DNA of 64,000 nucleotides, taken from an uncultured delta proteobacterium (GTDB taxonomy: Bacteria > Desulfobacterota > Binatia > Binatales > Binataceae). The notes under the pieces are model-generated. The model saw only the letters and a list, made by a program, of their open reading frames with translations. It was not told the origin of the DNA and ran no database searches. The translations under genes and the position numbers were made by a program. The DNA is taken from the NCBI GenBank assembly GCA_963814035.1, contig CAWFBH010000002.1:118691-182690 (forward strand), in the 5' to 3' direction. Numbering within the stretch: the first letter of the stretch is position 1; the number at the start of each line of letters is the position of its first letter. This document shows positions 7,205 to 26,617 of the stretch, one piece after another.

Positions 7205-8100
7205 TGGCCTTCTCCACCCGATCGATGAAGATTTCCTCCAGCGAGGGCTCCATCACTTCGAAGCGCGAGATTTTGGCAGAGCACATCGCCGCTCGAAGCA
7301 GGTCCTGGGAATCGGCGCCGGGTCGCAGCTTCACTTCTGCGTAGTTACCGTAGTTGTTGCTCGATTCGACCAGCGGGCATCGAGTGAGGAATCTAGCGTC
7401 GCCCTCGTACGCGATCTGGACGAAGCGCGCACCGTAGCTGGCCTTGACCTCGCGCAATGATCCTTGCAGGACCGCGCGCCCGTGGTTGACGAGGCAAATC
7501 GCATCGCAGAGCTTTTCAACCTGATCCATTCGATGCGTCGAGAACAGGATTGTCCGGCCCTGCTCTTTCAGTTCGAGGATCACATCTTTGAGGATATTGG
7601 CGTTGATCGGGTCGAGCCCCGAAAACGGCTCGTCCATGATGATCATCTCCGGTTCATGCAACAGCGCGGCGATAAACTGTACTTTCTGCTGCATGCCCTT
7701 GGACATTTCCTCGACCCGCTTGTCGACCCATTCCGCGATTTCGAGGCGCTCGGCCCATTTGCGGCCGCGCGCGATCGGCGTCGCGGGAGGTCAGCCCACT
7801 GAGCTGCCCAAGCAGCGCGAGGTTCTCGCGCACGGTGATTTTTCGATAGAGCCCGCGTTCCTCCGGCAAGTACCCTACTTTATGTAGATGGCGGCGCTCG
7901 AAGGGCTCGCCGAACAACCGCACCGCGCCGGCGTCGGGCCGGATGATCCCGATCATCATGCGAATCGAGCTGGTCTTGCCGGCGCCGTTGGGGCCCAGCA
8001 AGCCGAAAATCTGATGCGGAGAAATCGAAAAGGAAAGCTCGTCGACCGCTACAAAATCGTCGTAGGATTTGCGGACCCGCTCCAGCTCAACCGTCACCAT
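7197..8100 (-). CDS. ABC transporter ATP-binding protein, split by one frameshift near 7770
   Basis: GLLGPNGAGKT, GYLPEERGLY in ORF 7654..8262; signature MSKGMQQK, DEPFSGLDP, STH in ORF 7197..7706. Confidence 0.88.
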
Positions 8101-8167
8101 CGCATCGAGGCTACCGAATCGCACCAAACGAGACGAGGGCCTTTTTTCGACGGAAAGAATCTCTAAA

Positions 8168-8917
8168 TCAGTGCGCCCAGACCATCTGCGGATTTTTCTC
8201 CCACGGATAAACGTGCACCATCCAGCCGAACAGTTGCGGATAGAATACGCCGCCCGCTTCATCGCAGGCCTTCTTGGTCGCGATGCTCCCCATCCCGAAC
8301 TTCATCCAATCGACCTTCGAAGGATCGGTGCCCTTTTTCGGGAAGCACAGATTGATGTGCTTATGCCATCGCGCGACGCTGAGTGGCACGCGCTTGTTGA
8401 GCTGATCCGGGGTGTCGCGTTTCGGCGCCGTGTACATCGCGCCGACCAGCTCGTAGCCTCCGTCAGGCGTCCTCTTATATAGCAGCGAGGTCGGCTCGGC
8501 CGGATTGAAGGTGAAGGCGGCCTTGAGCCCGTACCACATCTTGGTGAAGTGGACGACAGGCTGTTTCATCTCCGGATGCCACGGTTTGTAACCCGCGGCT
8601 TCGGCGACCTTGTAGTCCTTGTATTTCGCCAAGACCTTTTGCAATGTCGCAACCATTTCGTCGGCGCGCTTCTGATCGGCCGCATTCTTTGGCCGCAGAT
8701 CCGTATAGCCCATGTGCGCCGCCATCATCGGATCGTGCTCCATGTGCTCCGACGACATCATCTGATCCATCGAGGCTGCGTTCTCGCCCTCTTCGGGCAT
8801 CATCTGATGCGTCATGCCGCCCATATCCATCGAGCCCATGTCATCGGCTAGCGCGACATTGAACATGAACAAGATGCCGACGACTGCGGCGACCGCGATA
8901 AGACTTGAATGACGCAT
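8168..8917 (-). CDS. Secreted hypothetical protein with Met/His-rich N-terminal segment
   Basis: Signal-peptide-like start (MRHSSLIAVAAVVGILFMFNVALA), then DDMGSMDMGGMTHQMM...MMSSEHMEHDPMMAAHM; C-terminal WHKHINLC...ACDEAGG...WMVHVYP. Confidence 0.8.
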   Translation of the reverse strand: MRHSSLIAVAAVVGILFMFNVALADDMGSMDMGGMTHQMMPEEGENAASMDQMMSSEHMEHDPMMAAHMGYTDLRPKNAADQKRADEMVATLQKVLAKYKDYKVAEAAGYKPWHPEMKQPVVHFTKMWYGLKAAFTFNPAEPTSLLYKRTPDGGYELVGAMYTAPKRDTPDQLNKRVPLSVARWHKHINLCFPKKGTDPSKVDWMKFGMGSIATKKACDEAGGVFYPQLFGWMVHVYPWEKNPQMVWAH

Positions 8918-19572: not shown

Positions 19573-19713
19573 TCCATCCGCCTCATGCTTAAAATTAGTG
19601 AAGAATCATGCCCCGTTTGCATCGAGGCGGGCAACCGAGGCGCATCGACGCAGCCTCGTGACGGCGTTGGCCGCCTTTCGGGCGCGGGATATTATGACAG
19701 CGGATTTTCCACG

Positions 19714-21030
19714 ATGAATGCATCGATTAATCATCGAGAACTGACCTATAAAGCCGTTGCCGGCCTCGCGGGTGGCGCCATCGGATGGCTGCCGGTCGAG
19801 ATCGCGAGTCACGGCCACAACCTGACTGATGTGATGACGACCGGCGACATCATCGCGTCTTACGTCACGATGGCGATGCTGTCGGGGATGATCGGCGGGC
19901 TGATCCTGGCCTCGGATGAGCAGAAGATCGAGCTTACGCCGACGGTGCGGAATCGATTCATTCTCGGGTTCGTCGTATGTTTCCTCCTCGCGCTGCCGGC
20001 GAACTACTACTCGAATATCGTTTTCTCCGCGATTCTGAATTACGGCGGATGGGGCACCGGCCATCCGGGTTCGATTGGCTACCTGGTCTTCGGGCGCGTG
20101 GTTTCCTGGATGATGATGGGCACGATGCTCGGCGCCGGGGTAGGCATCGCGGGTTTTTTCGGCTCCGCAGTGCCTCCGATCAAGTCGCTCGTTGGATCGA
20201 TTAATTTCCCCGCCATCAACATCATCAAAGGCGCCGCCGGGGGATGGATCGGCGGCGTCGCAGGCGGTCTGACCTTCGACCTTATCAATCAAGTGACCGG
20301 CGGCGGGTTGGCCTCGCGACTGATTGGATTGAGCCTCATCGGGTTGGCGATCGGATTGCTCATCGGACTGGTTCAGGAGCTGACCAAGGCCGCATGGCTC
20401 ACCGTCGATGCGGGTCGCCTGAAAGGTAGGCAATATCGCCTCGAAGGCGGGGTCTCGTCGATCGGCCGCGCCGAGGAAAATCCAGTCGGGCTGTTTGGCG
20501 ATGCCGCAGTGCAGGCGCGGCATGCGGTCATCGAGCGGCGCGGCAATGATTACGTGCTCCGAGGCCTTGCGGTTGCGGATGGAACTTTTGTCAATGGCGA
20601 GCGCATCGAGAGCGCGACGCTGCACGATGGCGATCGCATCCGCATCGGATCGTACGAACTGAGTTTCCATTTGCGCGGAGTGAAACCATCGATGCGGGTG
20701 GAAGCCGGTCCGTCGCAGTCGTACGTCGCGCCGCAGATGGCTGCCTCGAATGGCGGCGCGGTCCTTGTTGATGCGGCGGGCACGAGCTTTCCGATTGCGA
20801 CAGGGAAGGAAACCAAAATCGGACGTGCGACCGACAACGATATCGTGCTGGGAGATTCCTCGGTGTCGCGTCATCATGCGGCGATTGAATCGCGCAACGG
20901 AAGTTTTCAGGTGCGAGATCTGGGCAGCCAGAACGGAACCTTCGTGCGCGGCGAGCGGGTCAGCGAAGCTCCATTGAAGAACGGAGACCCGGTGCGGGTC
21001 GGCGACGCTTCGTTTACCTTCCGTGCCTGA
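19714..21030 (+). CDS. Multi-pass membrane protein with two C-terminal FHA domains
   Basis: About six to seven Gly-rich hydrophobic segments, then IGRAEEN..VQARHA..DGTFVNG and IGRATDND..VSRHHA..SQNGTFV. Confidence 0.88.
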   Translation: MNASINHRELTYKAVAGLAGGAIGWLPVEIASHGHNLTDVMTTGDIIASYVTMAMLSGMIGGLILASDEQKIELTPTVRNRFILGFVVCFLLALPANYYSNIVFSAILNYGGWGTGHPGSIGYLVFGRVVSWMMMGTMLGAGVGIAGFFGSAVPPIKSLVGSINFPAINIIKGAAGGWIGGVAGGLTFDLINQVTGGGLASRLIGLSLIGLAIGLLIGLVQELTKAAWLTVDAGRLKGRQYRLEGGVSSIGRAEENPVGLFGDAAVQARHAVIERRGNDYVLRGLAVADGTFVNGERIESATLHDGDRIRIGSYELSFHLRGVKPSMRVEAGPSQSYVAPQMAASNGGAVLVDAAGTSFPIATGKETKIGRATDNDIVLGDSSVSRHHAAIESRNGSFQVRDLGSQNGTFVRGERVSEAPLKNGDPVRVGDASFTFRA

Positions 21031-21428: not shown

Positions 21429-22997
21429 ATGATCGAGGCCAACTCCATAATCGGCGGACGCTATCGCGTCACCAAACCGCTCGGCGGCGGCGGCATGAAG
21501 ATGGTCTACCTCGCCGAGGACATGCGCCTGGCGTCGCGGCCGTGCGCGCTCGCCGAGATGGTTGACAGCTTCACCGATCCCTCGATGCAGCAACAGGCAG
21601 TCGCCGCCTTTCAGCGCGAGGCCGACATGCTCGCGCAACTCAGCAACGAGCATATCCCGCGCGTATTCGATCGCTTCAGCGACCAGAATCACCATTACCT
21701 GGTGATGGAGTTTATCGATGGCATTACGCTCGAAGACGAACTCAAAAACGAGGGCGGCAAACTCGAAGCGCCGCGCGTCATCGACATCGCACTGCAGATT
21801 CTCGAAACGCTGCAATATCTGCACAATCTCGAACCGCCGGTCGTATATCGCGACCTGAAGCCGTCGAACGTGATGCTCGGGCGCAACGGGCAGGTCAAGC
21901 TGATCGATTTCGGCATCGCACGATTCTTCTTGCCGCAGAGCAACGCGACCATGATCGGCACCCAGGGTTATGCGCCACCGGAGCAGTATCGCGGCCGCGC
22001 CGAGTCGCGCTCGGATTTGTATGCGCTCGGCGCCACGATGCATCACGCGCTGTCGGGCCGCGATCCTGCCGCGGAACCGCCCTTCAGTTTTCCGAAGCTC
22101 AAGACGCTCTGCCCCGATATGAATCCTGCGCTGGCCGAGTTGGTGGACCAGGCGCTGGAATATGACGTCGTGCATCGGATGGCCGATGCGGCGGAGTTCA
22201 AGGAGCGCCTCCTCGCGATTAAGGCCGGGACGGCGACCGCCAGGGTCAACGGTCAAACTGCCTCGCCGCGGCTGTCGGGCAAACCGCAAATGCGGCTGCC
22301 ACTCGGAGGCGCCCCGGTGCAGACGAGATCCGCGCCCGAAGACGCCACCGTCATCTTGAGGACGGACGATTTGCGCTGTCCGTCGTGCCGCCGAACGATT
22401 CCATCCGATTCGCGATTCTGTTCATTTTGCGGCGCGGGCGTGACACCGACACTGGCCACCAATGGTGGCCGCAACGCCGCGGATTCGGCGACCACCGTAT
22501 TGCCGGAGCGAGCTATTCCCGCATCGCAGCCGGACTATTCGCGCAGCGTCGATCAGCATCCGAACTGGCGACCAGCACGCCGCGATCCGCGACCGGTAAG
22601 GTTCGTTGTCGCGCTCTTAGTGGGATTGGTTGTCATGGCGTTCGCGGCTACCGGCATCGTGAACTACCTCCAGCAAGTGGCGCATCAACCAGAGCCGCCC
22701 GCGTCTGAAGCCGCGATTCCCGGGGATGAATCGGTGCCACCTCGGTATGAAAATCCAGGGCCGAACGTGCCCGATCCGCCGCATCGCAGCGCGGAAGAGA
22801 TAATGTTGCGGCAGTTGTTCAACATGGAAGGCCTGCAAACAGTGCACTTCATGATGTCCGGCGGTACAGTCGTTCTATGGGGTACGGTGCCGAGCGAATT
22901 CGCGCGCGAAGAAGTGCGCGGACAAGCGATGGCTTTCGGCAACCAGATGATAGATCACCTGATAATCCAATCTGATATGTCCGGCGGAACCGAATGA
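21429..22997 (+). CDS. Hanks-type Ser/Thr kinase with zinc ribbon, TM helix and BON-like C-terminal domain
   Basis: GGGGMKMVY, FQREA, VYRDLKPSN, LIDFG, GYAPPEQ; CPSC..CSFC; hydrophobic VVALLVGLVVMAFAATGIV; GTVVLWGTVPSE..MIDHLII. Confidence 0.92.
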   Translation: MIEANSIIGGRYRVTKPLGGGGMKMVYLAEDMRLASRPCALAEMVDSFTDPSMQQQAVAAFQREADMLAQLSNEHIPRVFDRFSDQNHHYLVMEFIDGITLEDELKNEGGKLEAPRVIDIALQILETLQYLHNLEPPVVYRDLKPSNVMLGRNGQVKLIDFGIARFFLPQSNATMIGTQGYAPPEQYRGRAESRSDLYALGATMHHALSGRDPAAEPPFSFPKLKTLCPDMNPALAELVDQALEYDVVHRMADAAEFKERLLAIKAGTATARVNGQTASPRLSGKPQMRLPLGGAPVQTRSAPEDATVILRTDDLRCPSCRRTIPSDSRFCSFCGAGVTPTLATNGGRNAADSATTVLPERAIPASQPDYSRSVDQHPNWRPARRDPRPVRFVVALLVGLVVMAFAATGIVNYLQQVAHQPEPPASEAAIPGDESVPPRYENPGPNVPDPPHRSAEEIMLRQLFNMEGLQTVHFMMSGGTVVLWGTVPSEFAREEVRGQAMAFGNQMIDHLIIQSDMSGGTE

Positions 22998-23650
22998 TCG
23001 TCGATATCCACGTCCACACCAATCTTTCCGATGACTCGAAAACCACGCCGGAAAAATATGTCGAGGCGGCGATCAAAAGCGGTGCGGGCCTGGGCGCGAT
23101 CTGCTTCACCGAGCATCGCAAGTTCCCACGCGATCGCGAGATCGATCGCATTTACTCCGAGCTTTCCGATAACCACGGGATTCTCATTATCAAGGGAGTC
23201 GAAGCCGATACCGATCTCGGCCACCTTCTGTTATTCGGGCTCAATGATGAAGTTCTGCGCCGCTTCGATCCGACCCAACGGATGCTCAAGAGCGCGCATC
23301 TCATCGACGTGATTCACAAGGAAGGCGGCATCGCGATCCCGGCGCATCCGTTTCGCGATTCCGGCTATGGCGCCCGCCTCGATGATTTGGTGGCCAAGCA
23401 CGGCAGCGCGCTCTCCGCCGTCGAAGCCATCAATGGGCAGAACTCGCCGGCCGAGAATGAGCGCGCGCTGATGGAGGCGGAAAAACTCGGCCTGACAGCG
23501 CTCGGCGGCAGCGACGCGCACTTTCCGACGCCCCATTGGTTCCTGACTTGCGCGACCGAACTGGAGCGCCCAATCAAGAATGTCGAAGAACTTTGCATAG
23601 AGTTTCGCGCCGGCCGCGCCCGCCCCTATCGTTTTCCTCGCGCCGCGTGA
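22994..23650 (+). CDS. PHP domain phosphoesterase
   Basis: DIHVHT, FTEH, GVE, HLL, AHPFR, GGSDAH; ATGA overlap with the kinase stop. Confidence 0.9.
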   Translation: MIVDIHVHTNLSDDSKTTPEKYVEAAIKSGAGLGAICFTEHRKFPRDREIDRIYSELSDNHGILIIKGVEADTDLGHLLLFGLNDEVLRRFDPTQRMLKSAHLIDVIHKEGGIAIPAHPFRDSGYGARLDDLVAKHGSALSAVEAINGQNSPAENERALMEAEKLGLTALGGSDAHFPTPHWFLTCATELERPIKNVEELCIEFRAGRARPYRFPRAA

Positions 23651-23653
23651 AGC

Positions 23654-25735
23654 CTACGCAGTGGCCGGCGTCCCGTTCGCGGGTTTCGCGGGCAACTCTT
23701 CCAGCGACCGCGCGAAGCGGCGCAGATCCGATGCGCGGCCCGCGATCACCAAAAGATCCCCGGCCTTTAGCGGCCGGTCGGGCGAAACCGGAACGAAACC
23801 CGAGCCGGGATCATCGAAGTCACGCAACGCCAGCACCGTAACGCCAAACCTCGCGCGCGGATCGAGTGTGCGAATCGTCTGTCCCACCGACGCGGCGGGA
23901 ACCGCGACCCGCGTCACCCGATAGCCCGTCGCCCAGTAGATGTTGGAGTCGCCGCGCGCGATCGAAGTCAGCGACAGCGCCACTCGATTGAGTGCCTGTG
24001 CGAGATGGCGCCGCGTCACAAGGCCGAGAAATTGTCCATCGTGCGGGCGATCGGCAACCGGGATTTCCTCCAGACCATCGACGCCCATCAACTCGCTCGC
24101 CGCATCGAGGGTCGCGTCGGGCAGCACCAGCGGCGGGTTGCGTTCGCACAAATCATACGCATTTACCAGCGGTGATAACTCACTGTCGCGCACCAGCAGC
24201 GAGAGCAAATCGCGGGTGACGATGAGACCGACAAAATTGCCGGTGCTGTTCACCACCGGCAGCGTTGATTGCGAGGTCTCACCGGCAATCCGCAGCACCT
24301 CGTCGAACGAGGTATTATCCGCCACCGTCACGACGTCCTTATCCATCACCGCGCTGACCGGAATCTGCCCCAGCGCGAGACGCTCCTGCGCGATGTGCAG
24401 CGTTTTACCTTCGCGCGCGAGGCGAAAGGTATCGATCGATTCGGTCTCGATCATCCGCGCCACCACCAATGCCGCAATCGTTGCGATCATCGCGGGCAGC
24501 GCGACGGTGTAGTTTTGCGTCATCTCGAAGAGCAGAAAAAGCGCGGTCAATGGTGCGTGCGTGGTGCCTGCGAGAAATGCACCGAGGCCTACCAGCGCAT
24601 AGGACCCGCGCGGTCCAGCCAGATTAGGGATGAGATGCGCGATGGCACGCTGGAAGGTTCCGCCCGCCATCGTGCCGATGAAAAAGATCGGTCCGAATAC
24701 TCCGCCGGGAGCACCCGAGCCGAGTGACACGCTGCTGGTGAACATTTTCGCGAAGGTCAGCGCCGCAAGCATCGCGAATTCATACTTGCCCGCCATCGCA
24801 TCGTTGATGGTGGGATAGCCGTCGGACAAATTTTGCGGAAGAAAAATCGCGACTGCGCCAACGATCCCGGCTCCGATGGCGAGCTTCTGCCAATCGGGAA
24901 TGGCGAGCCGGCGAAACCGGTCGGCAGTCGCATGGAAGAAATGGATGTAGCTGGCCGCCAGCACGCCGAAAATCCCGCCCATTGCGCCGTAGGTCAGCAT
25001 TTCCCAGTAGCTTTTCAGTACAAAGGGTGGAACCTGAAAGACCGCATCGTTTCCGGCCACCATGCGCGAGGTTACCACCGCCGTCACCGTCGCCACGATC
25101 AGCAGCGTCAGGTTCGCGAGCTCGGTGTGGCCGAGCAGGACGATCTCCTGCGCAAACATCAGCCCGCCCATCGGAGCGTTGAAGGTGGTCGCGATGCCGG
25201 CGCCCGCCCCTGCCGCGACCAGCACTTTCGCGCGTTCAGGTCCCATTTTTCGGAGCTGCGCGACCGCCGATCCGATCGCTCCGCCGACCTGCGCGATGGG
25301 ACCTTCGCGTCCGACTGACCATCCCGAGCCGAGCGACAGTGCGGCACCCGCGGCTTTGATGAAAATCCATCCGCGCTTGATGCGCGCGTTGCCGAGGTTC
25401 ACTTGCTCGAGGAAGTGAGGGAATCCATATCCCAGCACGTCGCCGCGAAAGACGCGGTCGAGGAGCAGCATGCCGACCGCGCCGGCCGCGAGCACCAAAG
25501 GAACCGAGATGCGAAAGATGCCGCCGCGTGAAATTTGCAGCACCTCAAGCCCGAGGTAAAGAAACGCAGCTTGAGACCAATGGATCAGTTGACGAAAGCC
25601 CAGGTTGCCCAGCGCCGCGAGCATCCCGACGATCGCGGCGAGCAGGATCATCTGGACATAATTGTACTGATCGCTGCGAAGCCCGAGGTTCGCCTTAACA
25701 GGATTAATCTTGGATCCAGGCACTCGGACACCCAA
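23654..25735 (-). CDS. ClC-family chloride channel/transporter with CBS pair and TrkA-C domain
   Basis: GYGFP, GREGP, FNAP, GAPGGVFGP, FEMTQNY; CBS repeats; C-terminal RCK-C (VGQTIRTL..RFGVTVLAL). Start uncertain. Confidence 0.9.
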   Translation of the reverse strand: MGVRVPGSKINPVKANLGLRSDQYNYVQMILLAAIVGMLAALGNLGFRQLIHWSQAAFLYLGLEVLQISRGGIFRISVPLVLAAGAVGMLLLDRVFRGDVLGYGFPHFLEQVNLGNARIKRGWIFIKAAGAALSLGSGWSVGREGPIAQVGGAIGSAVAQLRKMGPERAKVLVAAGAGAGIATTFNAPMGGLMFAQEIVLLGHTELANLTLLIVATVTAVVTSRMVAGNDAVFQVPPFVLKSYWEMLTYGAMGGIFGVLAASYIHFFHATADRFRRLAIPDWQKLAIGAGIVGAVAIFLPQNLSDGYPTINDAMAGKYEFAMLAALTFAKMFTSSVSLGSGAPGGVFGPIFFIGTMAGGTFQRAIAHLIPNLAGPRGSYALVGLGAFLAGTTHAPLTALFLLFEMTQNYTVALPAMIATIAALVVARMIETESIDTFRLAREGKTLHIAQERLALGQIPVSAVMDKDVVTVADNTSFDEVLRIAGETSQSTLPVVNSTGNFVGLIVTRDLLSLLVRDSELSPLVNAYDLCERNPPLVLPDATLDAASELMGVDGLEEIPVADRPHDGQFLGLVTRRHLAQALNRVALSLTSIARGDSNIYWATGYRVTRVAVPAASVGQTIRTLDPRARFGVTVLALRDFDDPGSGFVPVSPDRPLKAGDLLVIAGRASDLRRFARSLEELPAKPANGTPATA

Positions 25736-25744
25736 TCGCGGAGT

Positions 25745-26617
25745 TCAGATTTTCAGGAAGCGCTTGATGGTCTTCAGGGACTCGTCGAGCTGATCATGAT
25801 GGACCCAATGGCCGGCCTTTTCTATGGTGACGATCTCCGCACTTTTGAAAACCTTGGTGCGGCCGTCTTTTTCCCAATCGCCGGTCCACGACTCGCCGCC
25901 ACGAATCAGCAGCGTCGGGCATTCGATGTGCGACCAGATTTCCTCGGCATCCTTGAGGTTGAACTGATACGGCGTGGTCGCGCGAACGTAATTGTCGAAC
26001 TTCCACGAATAAGTGCCGTTCTCGTTGCGCTCGATGCCGTGGATCGTCAAATGGCGCGCCTGCTCGACGCTTAAGTGCGGATTCTCCGAGCGCATCCTCG
26101 ACAGCGCCTCCTCGATGCTTGCGTATTCGCGGACTTTGCGCTGCGCCAGCGACTGCATCTCACGCACCCAATTCTTCATCCGCTCACTGGCGGGTGTGTC
26201 CTTGATCATCGCGGGCGGCGGGCCGAGTCCTTCGATCGACACCACCTTCTTCACCATCCCGGGAAACACCCCGGTGTACTGCAGGACGATACCACCGCCG
26301 AGCGAATGACCGATTAGCGTCAGCGGTTTGTTGCCCAGCGCATTGATGAGCTGCGCGAGGTCCACGACGTAGTCGATCATCGCGTAGGGGCTGCCGATTG
26401 CGTGCGCTGAGTCACCATGACCTCGGAGATCAGGCGCGATGACGTGATAATTCTTGCGCAGCTCGAGCGCCGTCCAATCCCAGTTGCGGCAGTGGTCGCG
26501 GCCACCGTGCACGAGGATCATCAGCGGCGCATCGTGATTGCCCCAGTCGACGTAGTGAAGCTTGAGCCGCTGCGAAAAAAAGTAGTGCGAGGTCGGTCCG
26601 ATGATGCTTTCGGGCAT
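25745..26617 (-). CDS. Alpha/beta fold hydrolase
   Basis: LVHGG, DLRGHG, GHSLGG nucleophile elbow, AGHWVH. Confidence 0.92.
   Translation of the reverse strand: MPESIIGPTSHYFFSQRLKLHYVDWGNHDAPLMILVHGGRDHCRNWDWTALELRKNYHVIAPDLRGHGDSAHAIGSPYAMIDYVVDLAQLINALGNKPLTLIGHSLGGGIVLQYTGVFPGMVKKVVSIEGLGPPPAMIKDTPASERMKNWVREMQSLAQRKVREYASIEEALSRMRSENPHLSVEQARHLTIHGIERNENGTYSWKFDNYVRATTPYQFNLKDAEEIWSHIECPTLLIRGGESWTGDWEKDGRTKVFKSAEIVTIEKAGHWVHHDQLDESLKTIKRFLKI

Follow-up and report, generated by a model that had tools for sequence, protein, structure and literature searches.

Whether a bacterial protein kinase can remain active after its catalytic lysine has moved to another strand is the question raised by one gene in a 64,000-nucleotide stretch of DNA from an uncultured delta proteobacterium of the family Binataceae (GenBank assembly GCA_963814035.1, contig CAWFBH010000002.1, positions 118,691 to 182,690 of the forward strand), which was analyzed as a whole and is called the window. 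The gene encodes a Hanks-type Ser/Thr kinase that has no lysine on strand beta-3 and features a lysine in the Gly-rich loop instead, an arrangement otherwise associated with the eukaryotic with-no-lysine (WNK) kinases. Among protein kinases of the eukaryotic type, WNKs are usually presented as the sole ones that lack the beta-3 lysine and are still active (PMC1821047), and sequence-based surveys call any bacterial kinase without this residue a pseudokinase. The reading favored here, which is considered likely, is that the protein is an active, single-pass membrane Ser/Thr kinase that reached a WNK-like pair, Lys24 and Ala42, independently of WNK and that belongs to a unit with an FHA protein and a zinc-ribbon protein.

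A preliminary description of the gene, made from the letters alone, had reported a beta-3 strand that reads CALAE with the codon GCC at the lysine position, a Gly-rich loop that reads LGGGGMKMVY with a Lys codon (AAG), and intact FQRE (helix C), YRDLKPSN, DFG and APPE motifs, and the translation agrees with it on every one of these points. The N-terminus reads MIEANSIIGGRYRVTKPLGGGGMK24MVYLAEDMRLASRPCALA42EMVD...FQRE64 and is followed by YRD142LKPSN147, D160FG and GYAPPE185. The 522-residue protein scores 122.9 bits against Pfam Pkinase, above the gathering score of 31.7, and the features of the Hanks-type family (PF00069), namely the catalytic loop, DFG, APE and the helix-C Glu, are all there, with Ala42 replacing the lysine of the VAIK motif. 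An HMMER alignment with the solved StkP kinase places Lys24 opposite the third position of the Gly loop and Ala42 opposite the lysine of VAVK. BLASTP against the WNK1 kinase domain pairs LGGGGMKMVY...CALAE with IGRGSFKTVY...VAWCE, with Lys24 at the position of Lys233 and Ala42 at that of Cys250; the WNK1 query was verified to be 100% identical to PDB 5w7t over 261 residues. The swap proposed earlier therefore matches the WNK arrangement position for position. In the AlphaFold2 model of the kinase domain (predicted local distance difference test score, pLDDT, 87.4), Lys24 is the first residue of strand beta-2. The close canonical paralogue in the same genome (contig C23, LGGGGMGVVY...CAIKEMVD) has the codons GGA (Gly) and AAG (Lys) at sites 24 and 42, so each exchange requires at least two base substitutions, and the occurrence of the swap in more than 100 genomes rules out a read error, as the preliminary description had already argued from the number of bases involved. 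Three other basic residues, R11, R37 and R63, were considered as compensating for the missing lysine and were rejected because canonical paralogues carry these too.

The preliminary description had also proposed that the two substitutions be followed across homologues, and they co-occur there without exception. All 120 of the closest homologues, whose kinase domains are 78–99% identical, contain [LIV]GGGGMKxVY together with [CST]ALAE[MV]. An HMMER search covered 1.84 billion cluster representatives (clustered at 50% identity), and the best 150 matches were analyzed by pairwise alignment. Among these, 52 have a Gly-loop Lys with a residue other than Lys at beta-3 (Ala in 50, Ser in 1 and Ile in 1), ~94 are canonical domains that keep the beta-3 Lys and whose Gly-loop residue is Gly, Ser, Ala, Thr or Cys, and Lys at both sites was seen in no match. 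Comparison of 47 swapped with 34 canonical sequences in one alignment revealed that only 2 of 270 sites, 24 and 42, are conserved in the clade yet essentially absent from its relatives. Site 42 is Ala in 98% of the clade and Lys in 34 of 34 canonical relatives, which feature Gly, Ser or Ala at site 24. Judged from these alignments, the swap is a clean reciprocal exchange of two residues that is accompanied by no other signature. Additionally, the Lys/Ala pair is retained in 19 of the 19 swapped paralogues that were fetched.

The swap is widespread within one bacterial family. A DNA pattern neutral at both codons matched four family genomes among 301 genomes sampled from the phylum, and each of the four carries exactly one Lys/Ala copy and one Gly/Lys copy. 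A motif-specific DNA pattern matched all 18 family genomes and none of the 133 genomes that belong to other families of the class. An orthologue with at least 68% identity over the kinase domain was found in ~110 of 121 sampled Binataceae species genomes, the exceptions being mostly incomplete genomes, and nearly all source names returned by searches with divergent clade members are Binataceae. The source names of the homologues assign the organism to Candidatus Binatus / Binataceae. A separate scan of genome contigs gave 80 loci, none of them swapped; the matches listed were canonical kinases only, with identities of no more than 53%, and these served as outgroups. The kinase thus belongs to the core genes of Binataceae, a family of soil bacteria, and the swap appears to be a Binataceae-wide innovation. 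A distribution over several phyla is not claimed: the single 'Limnocylindrales', 'Acidoferrum' and 'Deltaproteobacteria' labels belong to short contigs or are old labels, and they were treated as binning or labeling noise.

Maximum-likelihood inference on 50 swapped and 34 canonical sequences gave a tree in which a single branch parts the two states with 100% support in the Shimodaira-Hasegawa-like approximate likelihood-ratio test (SH-aLRT), which indicates that the change happened once. When more kinases were included in the tree, the swapped clade (99% support) fell within a 97%-supported group that also contains canonical kinases, namely those of Binataceae paralogues, Chloroflexota and Acidobacteriota. 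The best sequence matches in the PDB are the bacterial kinases StkP, Stk1, PknB and PknA (E ~1e-33), and Foldseek searches with the kinase-domain model rank Stk1, PknA and PknB best, with TM-scores of 0.77–0.81, and WNK3 at rank 22 with a TM-score of 0.72. By this comparison the fold is nearest to PknA and PknB and no nearer to WNK3 than to Aurora kinases. Neither the PDB sequence matches, the Foldseek ranks nor the tree place the protein in the WNK clade by sequence or by descent. The position of the swapped clade among ordinary PknB-like bacterial kinases shows convergence with WNK and not shared descent, which upholds the earlier description of the kinase as probably convergent. The exact two-residue exchange would then have occurred at the base of Binataceae, in a kinase that is PknB-like and ordinary in all other respects.

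The same genome encodes a fusion of a zinc ribbon, a kinase and a class III cyclase that also features a lysine in the Gly loop. In 10 family members of this kinase-cyclase lineage (loci L141-L156) the Gly-loop Lys is kept, the beta-3 residue is Ala or Ser, and a Lys or Arg follows three residues later. The lineage forms a separate clade with 99% support among other canonical kinases in the wider tree, an approximately unbiased (AU) test rejects uniting it with the window kinase clade (p = 0.0135), and these data suggest that the swap recurred in a second kinase lineage of the same family. A further observation concerns locus L128 (G331:C7), where a second kinase gene (~7306-8280) lies beside a swapped paralogue. 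This gene features GGGGMKRVY but RVVVEP at beta-3, is 41% identical, and reads as a further divergent variant with a lysine in the loop.

Lysine relocation has precedents, and the window kinase resembles each of them in part. It shares with the WNKs (WNK1, PDB 5w7t and 6cn9; WNK3, 5o26) the lysine at the third Gly position and a small residue other than Lys at beta-3, and the helix-C Glu, the catalytic loop and the metal-binding Asp are intact in both. The window kinase differs from WNK in its overall sequence, since the identity is 31% over 205 residues compared with matches to StkP and PknB at E 1e-33, and in its metal-binding motif, which is DFG and not DLG. A Pfam scan of the 522 residues gives Pkinase-type and zinc-ribbon families and a weak BON match, and neither a CCT/PF2-like (OSR1_C) domain nor an autoinhibitory region of the WNK kind was found after the kinase domain; this part of the protein contains the zinc ribbon, the transmembrane helix and the BON-like domain instead. 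The bacterial Hanks kinases PknB, StkP and PknA (PF00069) have in common with it the Met of the Gly loop and a Met gatekeeper, the order of an N-terminal kinase, one transmembrane helix and an extracellular sensor, and the genomic pairing with FHA proteins. Unlike these kinases, the window kinase has the Gly-loop Lys and no beta-3 Lys, its sensor is BON-like and not PASTA, and its unit contains a PHP gene in place of a PP2C phosphatase, no PP2C gene being found in the unit. In POMK (SGK196) and in the CAK-chloro subfamily the positive charge is likewise shifted from position 72 (beta-3) to position 55 in the Gly loop (PMC10211241, PMC1821047), and for CAK-chloro the analogous shift was noted by Kannan et al. 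(PMC1821047). The HRD and DFG equivalents of POMK are relocated too and POMK phosphorylates a sugar, whereas the window kinase is otherwise canonical. CAK-chloro is part of a family of small-molecule kinases, uses Arg and has lost the helix-C Glu. Full-text searches of the literature yielded no report of a bacterial Hanks kinase that carries its lysine as WNK does. The 2025 atlas of bacterial Ser/Thr kinases and the review that accompanies it list seven pseudokinase families and mention WNK solely for comparison with eukaryotes (bioRxiv 10.1101/2025.01.12.632604; PMC12599244). The earlier statement that no prokaryotic example has been characterized stands as far as the searchable literature shows, and the clade is a real, conserved and apparently undescribed bacterial variant of the with-no-lysine design.

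The residues expected of a working kinase are strongly constrained. Of 40 orthologues drawn from ~25 genera, 39 agree in K24, A42, E64, D142, K144, N147, D160, F161, G162, T174 and E185. The only exception (locus L117, G311:C15:851730-852524) contains two in-frame stops (1 TGA, 1 TAA) and a broken catalytic loop, and is either a pseudogene or an assembly error. The same set of residues is invariant in an alignment of 21 clade members that are 51–66% identical to the query, and comparison with orthologues from the same genus gave a ratio of nonsynonymous to synonymous substitution rates (dN/dS) of 0.05–0.07 at dS values of 0.19–0.64. A beta-2 lysine supports activity in WNK1 and POMK (PMC10211241, PMC1821047), and this precedent together with the strong constraint on the catalytic residues favors an active kinase in which Lys24 serves as the ATP anchor. 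The kinase is probably active. Lys24 would anchor the alpha and beta phosphates of ATP and pair with Glu64 of helix C, and the small Ala42 in place of the beta-3 lysine would leave space for the Lys24 side chain. Protein P0257 (783 residues, a metagenomic representative) belongs to the swapped clade and has lost both the catalytic loop and DFG, which read YGGLAPSK and DMP; its beta-3 residue is Ile. This protein probably descended from a Lys-swapped ancestor and became a genuine pseudokinase, and it illustrates how lost catalysis looks in this clade, where decay is visible when it occurs.

Several points weigh against an active kinase that arrived at the WNK arrangement on its own. The standard sequence definition, which looks for the VAIK lysine, would class the protein as a pseudokinase, and pseudokinases that bind ATP without transferring phosphate can likewise retain HRD and DFG under purifying selection. 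The clade goes back to a single swap, so its many sequences are no independent replicates; the second lineage adds only one, and the AU test was applied to a group chosen after the tree was seen. The protein could accordingly be a pseudokinase whose fold, and perhaps nucleotide binding, is kept for scaffolding or allosteric signaling with the FHA protein, with no phosphotransfer and with Lys24 in a structural or ATP-holding role. The absence of the beta-3 lysine fits this explanation, purifying selection by itself is no proof of catalysis, and bacterial families without the VAIK lysine are common, seven of them having been described (ActPs1-3, GLW, CP1, DYD and DLHK; bioRxiv 10.1101/2025.01.12.632604; PMC12599244). 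All seven, however, also lose or vary the HRD Asp, the DFG Asp or the helix-C Glu, or substitute Arg; they come from other phyla and have other domain partners, and none is described with a compensating Gly-loop Lys. The window kinase lacks such further degradation, since D142, D160 and E64 are invariant, and D142 as the catalytic base, N147 and D160 as metal ligands, E64 and the Thr of the activation loop stay unchanged down to ~50% identity. Nothing but the reciprocal pair at sites 24 and 42 is specific to the clade, a change that resembles compensation more than decay, and two kinases with this arrangement, WNK1 and POMK, are active (PMC10211241). A pseudokinase is regarded as unlikely, and an artefact of sequencing, assembly or annotation, or a gene decaying in this genome alone, as close to negligible. 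The genome is a draft of 75.6% completeness, which leaves room for such an error, but the reading frame is open, identical motifs recur in more than 100 independent genomes and metagenomes, and the low dN/dS points the same way, so that the homologues already refute this explanation.

The preliminary description had also hinted at a link to chloride, and three features could be read in that sense: the lysine arrangement is that of the chloride-sensitive WNKs, a ClC gene lies 0.66 kb downstream of the kinase on the opposite strand and is kept in 31 of 40 orthologous loci, and the ectodomain resembles BON proteins that include the osmotic-stress protein OsmY and the K+-binding protein Kbp. The kinase would then be a WNK-like chloride or osmotic sensor in which the empty beta-3 site serves as an anion pocket and is coupled to the neighboring ClC. 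The ClC gene had been placed immediately downstream, which is wrong, as a PHP gene intervenes. An alpha/beta-hydrolase gene beyond ClC is kept in the same 31 loci and is always paired with ClC, and a CoA-transferase gene on the other flank of the kinase unit is retained at a similar rate. Retention of ClC that equals that of unrelated flanking genes indicates family-level background synteny, and a ClC linkage beyond such background was rejected on the locus counts. Loci in which synteny breaks no longer have ClC but still have the FHA, zinc-ribbon and kinase genes side by side. No ClC gene was found within ~10 kb at the 20 paralogue loci checked, which include those of all 19 lysine-swapped paralogues. 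The chloride site of WNK1 consists of the backbone of Gly370 and Leu371 and the side chains of Phe283, Leu299, Leu369 and Leu371, and the L369F mutation abolishes chloride sensing (PMC7606576). This set of pocket residues is not found in the window kinase, where BLASTP mapping gives V79, L91, F161 and I163 as the equivalents, with a Phe, invariant in the clade, at the very position of Leu369. A fold that is at least as close to Aurora kinases as to WNK3, and closest to PknA and PknB, does not favor a chloride sensor either. Nothing in the sequences compared supports WNK-type chloride sensing or a coupling of the kinase to ClC, and this explanation is considered highly improbable. Very doubtful, too, is the wider proposal that Binataceae reinvented the with-no-lysine kinase at least twice, adaptively, with the vacated beta-3 site as a regulatory pocket for an anion or solute and with kinases that, through the BON-like domain, act as ion or osmotic sensors. 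If true, this adaptive proposal would make them functional bacterial counterparts of WNKs despite the different pocket chemistry at Phe161.

For an active kinase with a relocated lysine, the consequences reach beyond this family. The clade suggests that the WNK solution is a recurrent and accessible alternative design of the active site, and that automated calls of bacterial pseudokinases overlook such kinases. The difference of two sites from canonical relatives would offer a clean natural system for the cost and benefit of lysine relocation, free of other WNK specializations.

The features of the kinase gene and of its surroundings are collected in Table 1. Outside the kinase domain, the four Cys residues of the zinc ribbon are kept in orthologues. 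The C-terminal domain of ~60 residues matches Pfam BON (PF04972) weakly, with 16.4 bits against a cut-off of 27 and an E-value of 0.011, and BON had been annotated beforehand in two orthologues. The core of this domain is modeled by AlphaFold2 with a pLDDT above 90 and has a topology that fits BON, and its top Foldseek matches are OsmY, CdsD, DolP and Kbp, with weak E-values of 0.015–0.12 and probabilities of 0.9–1.0. The protein is thus predicted to be a receptor kinase whose kinase domain and zinc ribbon lie in the cytoplasm and are linked by a single transmembrane helix to a BON-like domain on the outside.

Table 1. Coordinates of the kinase gene, its domains and key codons, and neighboring or related genes (window positions unless a contig is named; pTM, predicted template modeling score)
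Feature	Position	Strand	Basis or remark
Receptor-type Ser/Thr kinase, relocated lysine, 522 aa	21429..22997	+	Open reading frame and translation; homologues share the start Met
Kinase domain, residues 1-270	21429..22238	+	Pfam Pkinase 2e-35; AlphaFold2 pLDDT 87.4, pTM 0.87
Codon AAG, Lys24, third Gly position of GxGxxG, start of strand beta-2	21498..21500	+	Proposed ATP-anchoring lysine
Codon GCC, Ala42, replaces the invariant beta-3 (VAIK) lysine	21552..21554	+	Aligned with StkP beta-3 Lys and WNK1 C250
Codon GAG, Glu64 of helix C (FQRE), usual salt-bridge partner of the catalytic lysine	21618..21620	+	Invariant across the clade
Catalytic loop YRD142LKPSN147	21846..21869	+	D142, K144 and N147 invariant in the clade alignment
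D160-F161-G162 metal-binding motif; Phe161 at the WNK1 Leu369 position	21906..21914	+	Invariant; mapping by BLASTP to WNK1
Cytoplasmic zinc ribbon CPSC...CSFC, residues 314-337	22368..22439	+	Pfam UPF0547, Zn_Ribbon_1 and DZR, all below cut-offs
Single transmembrane helix, residues 392-414	22602..22670	+	Hydropathy scan
Extracytoplasmic BON-like domain, residues ~455-513, alpha-beta-beta-alpha-beta	22791..22967	+	Weak Pfam BON, AlphaFold2, Foldseek
Polytopic membrane protein with two C-terminal FHA (phospho-Thr reader) domains, first gene of the unit	19714..21030	+	Pfam FHA twice, E 3e-37
Small zinc-ribbon membrane protein, 128 aa	21023..21409	+	Weak Pfam Zn_Ribbon_1 and DUF6677; one hydrophobic segment
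PHP-family phosphoesterase, fourth gene, loosely attached	22994..23650	+	Pfam PHP and PHP_C; start overlaps the kinase stop (ATGA)
ClC channel with CBS pair and TrkA_C	23654..25735	-	Pfam Voltage_CLC 1.4e-81; neighbor outside the unit, convergent with the PHP gene
Alpha/beta-hydrolase gene after ClC	25745..26617	-	
Zinc-ribbon/kinase/class III (adenylyl) cyclase fusion, 805-codon open frame, same genome	contig C7:338313-340727	-	GEGTSKTVF...VAFALIK

The core unit consists of the FHA gene, the zinc-ribbon gene and the kinase gene. All 40 orthologous loci have the FHA gene upstream of the kinase gene, and in 39 of them the zinc-ribbon gene stands between the two. The stop of the FHA gene overlaps the start of the zinc-ribbon gene, and the reading frames of the unit overlap or nearly abut. 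A hydropathy scan revealed several hydrophobic segments in the N-terminal half of the FHA protein. The FHA membrane protein and the zinc-ribbon protein most likely read phospho-threonines produced by the kinase, with the FHA protein as the presumed partner. FHA genes also adjoin 5 of the 19 swapped paralogues. The PHP gene follows the kinase in 30 of 40 orthologous loci, and its absence from the other 10 makes a phosphatase role for the unit doubtful. The ClC and alpha/beta-hydrolase genes on the opposite strand may form a conserved pair of their own. A scan for promoters and terminators gave only matches at chance level, among them one promoter-like site (19667-19695) just upstream of the FHA gene.

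The paralogues feature varied architectures. In P0129, P0134, P0350, P0172, P0357 and P0356 the swapped domain is fused to FGE-sulfatase, Sel1/TPR, a lytic transglycosylase domain or a PQQ beta-propeller, and this variety of C-terminal fusions indicates that the swapped clade radiated as a general signaling module. Three adjacent genes of the kinase family lie elsewhere in the same genome (contig C23:60205-66387, +). One of them encodes a canonical kinase with a C-terminal FHA domain, and another encodes a truncated or degenerate kinase-like domain fused to a C-terminus that, as read from the sequence with no family search, is PP2C-like. The remaining one encodes the canonical kinase with LGGGGMGVVY...CAIKEM that is the nearest non-swapped relative of the window kinase.

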